From NCBI RefSeq assembly GCF_002854065.1, contig NZ_CP024147.1: 64,000 nucleotides of DNA. One strand, given 5' to 3'. The translations under genes and the position numbers were made by a program. The stretch comes from Escherichia coli (GTDB taxonomy: Bacteria > Pseudomonadota > Gammaproteobacteria > Enterobacterales > Enterobacteriaceae). Numbering within the stretch: position 1 is the first letter of the stretch; each line of letters begins with the position of its first letter. Below the pieces are notes generated by a model that made no database searches, was not told the origin of the DNA, and was given only the letters and a program-made list of their open reading frames with translations. Of this stretch, positions 24,102 through 26,527 are shown in pieces.

Positions 24102-24173
24102 TTAGCCCTCCTCAGATAAGATTATTACCATTATTGAAGCTGTTAATGTCCAAAGTAGCAACTTTGCTTGCAC

Positions 24174-24189
24174 TAGACCGACTGGTCTA
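24174..24189. promoter_or_regulatory. NemR operator (perfect palindrome) in nemR promoter
   Basis: tagaccgactggtcta, perfect 6-4-6 inverted repeat 15 bp upstream of nemR start; matches the NemR box as I recall it. Confidence 0.7.
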
Positions 24190-24203
24190 CTACACTCCAA
24201 CAC

Positions 24204-24803
24204 ATGAACAAACACACCGAACATGATACTCGCGAACATCTCCTGGCGACGGGCGAGCAACTTTGCCTGCAACGTGGATTCACCGGGATGGGGCTAAGCG
24301 AATTACTAAAAACCGCTGAAGTGCCGAAAGGGTCCTTCTATCACTACTTTCGCTCTAAAGAGGCGTTTGGCGTTGCCATGCTTGAGCGCCATTATGCCGC
24401 ATATCACCAGCGACTGACTGAGTTGCTGCAATCCGGCGAAGGTAACTACCGCGACCGCATACTGGCTTATTACCAGCAAACACTGAACCAGTTTTGCCAA
24501 CATGGAACCATCAGTGGTTGCCTGACAGTAAAACTCTCTGCCGAAGTGTGCGATCTTTCAGAAGATATGCGTAGCGCGATGGATAAAGGCGCTCGCGGCG
24601 TGATCGCCCTGCTCTCGCAGGCTCTGGAAAATGGCCGTGAGAACCACTGTTTAACCTTTTGTGGCGAACCGCTGCAACAGGCACAAGTGCTTTACGCACT
24701 ATGGCTGGGTGCGAATCTGCAGGCCAAAATTTCGCGCAGTTTCGAGCCGCTGGAAAACGCGCTGGCACATGTAAAAAACATTATTGCGACGCCTGCCGTT
24801 TAG
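24204..24803 (+). CDS. nemR: TetR-family electrophile-sensing repressor NemR
   Basis: 199-aa ORF; N-terminal TetR HTH; recognised. Confidence 0.93.
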   Translation: MNKHTEHDTREHLLATGEQLCLQRGFTGMGLSELLKTAEVPKGSFYHYFRSKEAFGVAMLERHYAAYHQRLTELLQSGEGNYRDRILAYYQQTLNQFCQHGTISGCLTVKLSAEVCDLSEDMRSAMDKGARGVIALLSQALENGRENHCLTFCGEPLQQAQVLYALWLGANLQAKISRSFEPLENALAHVKNIIATPAV

Positions 24804-24839
24804 CAGGCATTTTTTATCACCAGACGACCGGGAGCCTTT

Positions 24840-25937
24840 ATGTCATCTGAAAAACTGTATTCCCCACTGAAAGTGGGCGCAATAACTGCGGCAAACCGTA
24901 TTTTTATGGCACCGCTGACGCGTCTGCGCAGTATTGAACCGGGTGACATCCCTACCCCGTTGATGGCGGAATACTATCGCCAACGTGCCAGTGCCGGTTT
25001 GATTATTAGCGAAGCCACGCAAATTTCTGCCCAGGCAAAAGGGTATGCTGGTGCACCTGGCATCCATAGTCCGGAACAAATTGCCGCATGGAAAAAAATT
25101 ACCGCTGGCGTTCATGCTGAAAATGGACATATGGCCGTACAGCTGTGGCACACCGGACGCATTTCTCACGCCAGCCTGCAACCTGGCGGTCAGGCACCGG
25201 TAGCGCCTTCAGCACTTAGCGCGGGAACACGTACTTCTCTGCGCGATGAAAATGGTCAGGCGATCCGTGTTGAAACATCCATGCCGCGTGCGCTTGAACT
25301 GGAAGAGATTCCAGGTATCGTCAATGATTTCCGTCAGGCCATTGCTAACGCGCGTGAAGCCGGTTTTGATCTGGTAGAGCTCCACTCTGCTCACGGTTAT
25401 TTGCTGCATCAGTTCCTTTCCCCTTCTTCAAACCATCGTACCGATCAGTACGGCGGCAGCGTGGAAAATCGCGCACGTTTGGTACTGGAAGTGGTCGATG
25501 CCGGGATTGAAGAATGGGGTGCCGATCGCATTGGCATTCGCGTTTCGCCAATCGGTACTTTCCAGAACACGGATAACGGCCCGAATGAAGAAGCCGATGC
25601 ACTGTATCTGATTGAACAACTGGGTAAACGCGGCATTGCTTATCTGCATATGTCAGAACCAGATTGGGCGGGGGGTGAACCGTATACTGATGCGTTCCGC
25701 GAAAAAGTACGCGCCCGTTTCCACGGTCCGATTATCGGCGCAGGTGCATACACGGTAGAAAAAGCCGAAACGCTGATTGGCAAAGGGTTAATTGATGCGG
25801 TGGCATTTGGTCGTGACTGGATTGCGAACCCGGATCTGGTCGCCCGCTTGCAGCGCAGAGCTGAGCTTAACCCACAACGTGCCGAAAGTTTCTACGGTGG
25901 CGGCGCGGAAGGCTATACCGATTACCCGACGTTGTAA
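24840..25937 (+). CDS. nemA: N-ethylmaleimide reductase (Old Yellow Enzyme family, FMN)
   Basis: 365-aa ORF; recognised. Confidence 0.95.
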
Positions 25938-26017
25938 TCCAACATTGCGAGCGGCGTAAAGCCGCCGCTATACTAAAACAACATTTTGAATCTGTTAGCC
26001 ATTTTGAGGATAAAAAG

Positions 26018-26425
26018 ATGCGTCTTCTTCATACCATGCTGCGCGTTGGCGATTTGCAACGCTCCATCGATTTTTATACCAAAGTTCTGGGCATGAAACT
26101 GCTGCGTACCAGCGAAAACCCGGAATACAAATACTCACTGGCGTTTGTTGGCTACGGCCCGGAAACCGAAGAAGCGGTGATTGAACTGACCTACAACTGG
26201 GGCGTGGATAAATACGAACTCGGCACTGCTTATGGTCACATCGCGCTTAGCGTAGATAATGCCGCTGAAGCGTGCGAAAAAATCCGTCAAAACGGGGGTA
26301 ACGTGACCCGTGAAGCGGGTCCGGTAAAAGGCGGTACTACGGTTATCGCGTTTGTGGAAGATCCGGACGGTTACAAAATTGAGTTAATCGAAGAGAAAGA
26401 CGCCGGTCGCGGTCTGGGCAACTAA
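26018..26425 (+). CDS. gloA: glyoxalase I (lactoylglutathione lyase)
   Basis: 135-aa [29 protein letters not shown]...; recognised. Confidence 0.95.
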
Positions 26426-26527
26426 TCTCCTGCCGGGCGTGAACTCCTCGCGCCCGCATCTTTACTGCATCGACAAGTAATATTTGTCATAATGCGCGCT
26501 GCAATTTATCCGTATTAAGAGAATCAG

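Follow-up and report, generated by a model that had tools for sequence, protein, structure and literature searches.

Positions 24174–26425 of the 64,000-nucleotide (nt) stretch of Escherichia coli DNA analysed here (the window) hold the nemR-nemA-gloA locus, as identified from protein family matches and from comparison with E. coli K-12. This is almost certainly the electrophile and bleach defence system in which a dimer of the TetR-family repressor NemR acts on a TAGACC-N4-GGTCTA box in its own promoter. What we read directly from the sequences is which genes are present, how the box is built, that it lies within a conserved promoter and how well it is conserved among relatives. A first-pass annotation of the window had called the unit known biology, and rightly so: the locus and the NemR operator are already in the literature, and we have re-identified a textbook stress locus. 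The anatomy of the operator is nevertheless corrected here, from a perfect palindrome to an imperfect one, shared with RutR, that occupies the spacer of a promoter giving a leaderless mRNA. Other Enterobacterales carry a second box between nemR and nemA, of which the window retains a remnant.

The nemR operator and its promoter

The box upstream of nemR (O1), TAGACCGACTGGTCTA, occurs once in the window, at 24174–24189 on the + strand. Its reverse complement is TAGACCAGTCGGTCTA, so the two strands do not read alike. Positions 1–6 pair with positions 16–11, giving 12 paired positions out of 16, while 7/10 (G/T) and 8/9 (A/C) remain unpaired, the central GACT not being self-complementary. The 16-bp perfect palindrome of the first-pass annotation is thus a 6-bp inverted repeat (TAGACC/GGTCTA) around a 4-nt spacer that does not pair, and because the palindrome is imperfect that observation is confirmed only in part. 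Its distance of 15 bp to nemR holds when counted from the last base of the box, which lies 15 positions ahead of the A of the nemR ATG, but the gap proper is 14 nt. The centre of the box falls at −22.5 relative to the nemR start. Its designation as the NemR operator is supported by the inverted repeat cited for the nemR promoter and by the conservation described below. No further box with up to two mismatches in the arms was found in the window.

Eighty loci with NemR relatives were taken, one genome per species, and upstream boxes were aligned in 37 loci in which NemR is 50–96% identical and nemA follows directly wherever the contig reaches. Among the aligned genera are Escherichia, Citrobacter, Enterobacter, Kluyvera, Cedecea, Providencia, Budvicia, Yersinia and Serratia. 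In every locus the box closely precedes nemR, mostly by 13–15 nt to the ATG, and its arms match at all 12 positions in 27 loci, at 11 in 7 and at 10 in 3. Information content, computed over 37 sequences (36 orthologous loci and the window), is 1.76 and 1.91 bits per column in the two arms and 1.1 bits in the centre, where nine distinct sequences occur. The sole conserved block in this alignment is TTGCAy-TAGACC-N4-GGTCTA-y-TAnnnT; information falls to 0.13 bits per column in the 24 nt upstream of it and to 0.20 in the 7 nt downstream.

Matches to the 16-mer with up to three mismatches arise in 17 of 100 shuffles, and a single window cannot settle whether the box is a product of chance. It is more than that because its arms are conserved across orthologous loci while the flanks vary. 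The shuffles, and a terminator scan that flagged the orthologous box in Citrobacter, are what speaks for the inverted repeat being a chance palindrome or an RNA hairpin and not a protein site. We give this explanation next to no credence: the arms are conserved as sequence and not merely as pairs, alongside host NemR proteins down to 50% identity; transcription from the mapped nemR start and from the divergent ydhL start runs away from the box on either side, so that it is transcribed from neither mapped promoter; and its RNA fold is weak (−7.4 kcal/mol, z −1.7). The conservation pattern effectively refutes the explanation, leaving a protein-binding site as our reading of the box.

Several other repeats of similar form were seen. 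CAAAGTagcaACTTTG at 24151–24166 is a 6+4+6 inverted repeat with perfect arms, 7 bp upstream of the NemR box, which puts it at about −25 to −40 relative to the start of the divergent ydhL (window 24126). We rejected it as a second NemR site, since it is conserved only within Escherichia. In six loci (L006, L010, L025, L032, L053 and L068) the centre of the nemR box is GATC, which makes a true perfect palindrome and places a Dam site in the operator. A 15-bp form, (C)TAGACGACyGGTCTA, the same as that of the second box described below, precedes the start codons of more distant nemR homologues by 14–23 nt in Leeia, Vibrio, Pseudomonas, Burkholderia and Paraburkholderia, and in Chitinibacter it is reversed in orientation, 12 nt before the start (loci L037, L038, L040, L061, L062 and L078 in all). 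Both the 15-bp and the 16-bp spacing therefore serve as primary boxes in the family.

Since an invariant TTG stands just upstream of the box and TA...T one base downstream of it, the box fills the 17-nt spacer between the −35 and −10 elements, and the nemR promoter is of the sigma-70 type. The −35 hexamer is TTGCAy in most aligned sequences and TTGACC in Yersinia and Serratia. The nemR ATG follows the −10 hexamer mostly by 6–8 nt in the alignment and by 7 nt in the window, and no Shine-Dalgarno sequence is present in the 14 nt upstream of it (CTACACTCCAACAC). This close spacing and the missing Shine-Dalgarno sequence predict a transcript that starts at the ATG itself. Published mapping confirms the prediction: the K-12 nemR transcription start site, 1724047, is the start codon, with a 5′ untranslated region of 0 and 15 reads (PMC3415461 Tables S1, S4), and the Klebsiella pneumoniae orthologue is likewise leaderless, with 20 reads (PMC3415461). 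Both are in the leaderless-mRNA table of that study, which has 18 entries for E. coli (PMC3415461). The nemR mRNA is thus leaderless and starts on the A of the ATG.

NemR and RutR at the box

NemR is reported, in a secondary source, to repress its own promoter through an inverted-repeat operator (PMC13178969). GloA increases when the operator carries a point mutation, and NemR is switched through Cys106-Lys175 and Cys21/Cys116 (PMC5297802); mutations in the nemR promoter were predicted to abolish repression (PMC3045373). Published papers are our source for where transcription starts, for the readthrough into gloA, for the cysteine switch and for RutR binding. In the regulation that we propose, a NemR dimer would bind TAGACC-N4-GGTCTA, fill the spacer between TTGCAC and TACACT and thereby exclude RNA polymerase. 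When electrophiles or reactive chlorine modify its cysteines, NemR binds DNA with lower affinity, and induction follows. The transcript, which starts at the A of the nemR ATG, would pass a hairpin and T-run at the nemR stop into nemA and partly reach gloA, which also has a constitutive promoter of its own in the nemA-gloA spacer. We infer that polymerase is excluded by steric overlap and that termination at the nemR hairpin is partial.

The same 16-mer is known from work on a second TetR-family protein. Chromatin immunoprecipitation with microarray detection (ChIP-chip) of RutR lists exactly TAGACCGACTGGTCTA, centred −22.5 from the start codon of ydhM (nemR) (PMC2475637), which is the exact centre of 24174–24189. 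Of the 14 positions of the RutR consensus the box has 11, key positions 4 and 13 among them; it was bound in vivo and in vitro, and is absent from the four low-affinity targets in electrophoretic mobility shift assays (PMC2475637). Moreover, nemR mutations suppress the loss of RutE, so that NemA activity bears on the Rut pathway (PMC3045373). A link between the nemR box and pyrimidine catabolism may therefore exist. We nonetheless consider it unlikely that the 16-mer functions as a RutR operator coupling pyrimidine catabolism to nemA, whether instead of or besides its role for NemR. In the same ChIP-chip study an effect of RutR on transcript level was seen only for ves (PMC2475637), and NemR-dependent repression is documented. 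The RutR box (TTGACCAnnTGGTCAA) is also 16 bp long with arms of 6–7 bp, but its consensus has T and A at positions 2 and 15, where the nemR box has A and T; Enterobacterales keep A and T there, a pattern of the NemR kind. Because positions 2 and 15 keep A and T, the transcript effect of RutR is confined to ves and repression by NemR is published, we regard NemR as the cognate repressor and RutR as a paralogue that cross-binds there, with uncertain consequences.

Some points weigh against the picture of a NemR operator in a leaderless promoter. Assignment of the exact 16-mer to NemR draws on secondary citations and on conservation, and we found the 16-mer printed in the literature only as a RutR site (PMC2475637). 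The nemR start was mapped in K-12, a different strain from that of the window, which has A in place of the K-12 G at −2 from the nemR start (window 24202). The nemR promoter was missed by a simple sigma-70 scan because both of its hexamers are weak matches.

The junction of nemR and nemA

The three genes lie on the same strand, with gaps of 36 nt between nemR and nemA and 80 nt between nemA and gloA. A hairpin at the end of nemR (24791–24808; −11.4 kcal/mol, z −2.9) is followed by six T residues after the stem. It is kept in 22 other genera, with two-sided compensatory changes in three of its six pairs (23 sequences), and it resembles an intrinsic terminator or attenuator; the K-12 Term-seq supplement (PMC7815308) lists no 3′ end at nemR. 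A terminator-like hairpin between a repressor gene and a co-transcribed enzyme gene is oddly placed.

All 35 non-Escherichia Enterobacterales loci examined have a second box, TAGwC-GACyG-GTCTA (O2), between nemR and nemA, and we know of no earlier description of it. Its general form is TAGAC-N5-GTCTA, with the right ten bases invariant and the arms one base closer together than in O1. It lies 10–24 nt (mostly 13–17) before the nemA ATG, just ahead of the Shine-Dalgarno sequence, and about 25–55 nt past the nemR stop (loci L004–L039 and L068). In 23 loci the gap between the T-tract of the hairpin and the first base of O2 is exactly 10 nt, and the sequence of this gap differs between loci. No sigma-70-like promoter was found around O2 in the two loci scanned (Citrobacter L004 and Kluyvera L017), nor did manual inspection show a conserved −35 or −10. 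We rejected O2 as an RNA hairpin, given that the common variant TAGTC breaks the pairing uncompensated and the right half is invariant. In our judgement O2 is probably a real protein-binding site.

The fixed distance between T-tract and box raises a possibility that we advance only tentatively from the sequence arrangement: NemR bound at O2 might act as a roadblock that stalls polymerase with its active site in the T-tract, which would make the terminator conditional on the repressor. If so, nemA would be induced over a wider range than nemR. Such an arrangement, with the site of a repressor at constant spacing downstream of a terminator and with that site lost from the model organism in which the system was defined, could interest those who study TetR-family regulation and transcription termination.

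The window and E. coli locus L002 have CAGACGACCGG-GAGCC at this place, in which the left half is kept and the right arm is gone, and their nemR-nemA spacer is 36 nt compared with 51–60 nt in the other loci. Escherichia has kept the hairpin but lost the right arm of O2, in the roadblock reading through small deletions that would leave E. coli nemA dependent on O1 alone. The description of the unit as well preserved in the first-pass annotation accordingly holds within E. coli, but Escherichia lacks the second box that other Enterobacterales keep before nemA. The E. coli unit may descend, in simplified form, from a design with two operators. If this is true, what is known of nemRA regulation in E. 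coli would not represent its relatives, among them Klebsiella-like and Enterobacter pathogens in which NemA has been tied to tolerance of disinfectants.

Gene content, gloA and related systems

Features of the nemR-nemA-gloA locus, in window coordinates
Feature	Position	Strand	Evidence or remarks
nemR −35 element, TTGCAC	24168–24173	+	TTG invariant, 2.0 bits per column (37 sequences); 17 nt from −10
NemR operator O1, TAGACC-GACT-GGTCTA	24174–24189	n/a	6+4+6 inverted repeat, also a RutR target; sequence, pairing, conservation
nemR −10 element, TACACT	24191–24196	+	positions 1, 2 and 6 (T, A, T) invariant (37 sequences)
nemR coding sequence	24204–24803	+	199 amino acids, TetR_N and TetR_C_13; 24204 is also the transcription start
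Terminator-like hairpin, GCCTGC-N6-GCAGGC, then ATTTTTTAT	24791–24817	+	nemR stop in loop; terminator scan
O2 remnant, CAGACGACCGG	24821–24831	n/a	other Enterobacterales have TAGACGACCGGTCTA at this place
nemA Shine-Dalgarno sequence, GGGAG	24830–24834	+	
nemA coding sequence	24840–25937	+	365 amino acids; N-ethylmaleimide reductase, Old Yellow Enzyme family
gloA promoter, TTGCGA-18-TATACT, and mapped start 25981	25945–25981	+	promoter scan; K-12 transcription start site
gloA coding sequence	26018–26425	+	135 amino acids; glyoxalase I, lactoylglutathione lyase
Terminator after gloA, tail CATCTTTACT	26434–26466	+	9-bp stem with 7 G-C pairs; terminator scan, Term-seq

Protein models and the K-12 annotation bear out the earlier naming of the genes as nemR, the Old Yellow Enzyme-family reductase gene nemA and glyoxalase I. 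NemR matches PF00440 (TetR N-terminal helix-turn-helix; E 6.2e-10) and PF16925 (TetR_C_13; E 3.4e-10), both passing the cut-offs, as well as the solved NemR structure in PDB (4yze; E 3.9e-127). It shows no difference from K-12 NemR over 199 amino acids and has Cys21, 98, 106, 116, 149 and 153 and Lys175. NemA matches NCBIfam NF007899 (N-ethylmaleimide reductase) over its full length, 1–365, with 763.5 bits against a cut-off of 403, and Pfam PF00724 (Oxidored_FMN; E 7.4e-86); its single substitution relative to K-12 is K340R. GloA is identical to its K-12 counterpart and scores 305.6 bits with NCBIfam NF007629 (lactoylglutathione lyase; cut-off 246) and 183.6 bits with TIGR00068 (cut-off 120).

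The promoter predicted for gloA has an expected start that matches the start mapped in K-12 at 1725824 (14 reads; PMC3415461 Table S1), which corresponds to window 25981, 37 nt upstream of gloA. A hairpin at 25947–25968 (−15.6 kcal/mol) overlaps this promoter and has no T-run. A further K-12 5′ end, with 31 reads, lies inside nemA (window 25336) and was assigned to gloA with a 682-nt leader (PMC3415461); it outnumbers the proximal start (31 versus 14 reads) and could be an internal promoter or a processing site. The hairpin of the terminator after gloA (26434–26456; −17.9 kcal/mol, z −4.25) coincides with the K-12 Term-seq 3′ end at 1728279 (PMC7815308 supplement), window 26460.

The gene's own promoter-like site with a mapped start, the second 5′ end inside nemA and the existence of nemRA loci with no neighbouring gloA (Providencia, Budvicia, Yersinia nurmii and a Neisseriaceae genome) would all fit a gloA that is an independent transcription unit, merely downstream and not a member of the operon. 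We hold this to be quite improbable, in view of RNA polymerase occupancy that continues from nemRA into gloA and of the rise in gloA mRNA and enzyme activity in a nemR deletion (PMC3739934). There is also no marked terminator between nemA and gloA (PMC3739934), and the hairpin at 25947–25968 lacks a T-run. Readthrough from nemRA into gloA, with a benefit for methylglyoxal tolerance, has been reported (PMC3739934), and gloA is probably part of the operon.

Of 5426 complete E. coli genomes, 5425 contain the 2.7-kb nemR-gloA region at 95–100% identity, annotated there as ydhL / nemR-nemA-gloA-rnt. One genome had no match to it at all, and one copy lies on a record classed as a plasmid. By megablast, the 43-nt promoter segment of the window has an exact match in only 36 of the 5426 genomes, and most others differ from it by one base, presumably at −2; the 36-nt core is identical in 5205 of 5426. 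These two queries yield identity bands only, and the 195 genomes without a match to the 36-mer, which probably reflect the requirement for a 28-nt exact word, are not evidence of damaged operators.

The K-12 nemRA-gloA operon (b1649–b1651) equals that of the window in gene order and in the lengths of all genes and spacers. Nucleotide differences number 14 in nemR, 20 in nemA and 2 in gloA, nearly all of them silent. In the ydhL-nemR spacer 2 of 102 positions differ, neither inside the box, and the 16-mer is identical; we see no functional difference between the two.

Besides K-12, the closest described system is acuR-acuI-dddL of Rhodobacter sphaeroides. AcuR is an acrylate-responsive TetR-family repressor, and like nemR its gene comes first in the operon, has a leaderless transcript and responds to an electrophile inducer (PMC3017554). 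The AcuR operator, TAATAGAC-n6-GTCTATTA, has the core TAGAC-n6-GTCTA and overlaps the −35/−10 promoter (PMC3017554); its arms are 8 bp, compared with 6 bp in the nemR box, and the enzymes are AcuI and DddL in place of an Old Yellow Enzyme reductase and glyoxalase I. NemR scores 119 bits (E 1.3e-34) with the AcuR model, below the family cut-off of 247, and is therefore a relative with a shared design but no orthologue of AcuR. Repressor mRNAs that start at the AUG, like that of nemR, are also made by Tn1721 tetR and lambda cI, and such leaderless mRNAs are taken to keep repressor levels low (PMC3017554 discussion). Those two genes are transcribed divergently from their targets or within a switch, whereas nemR leads a co-directional operon.

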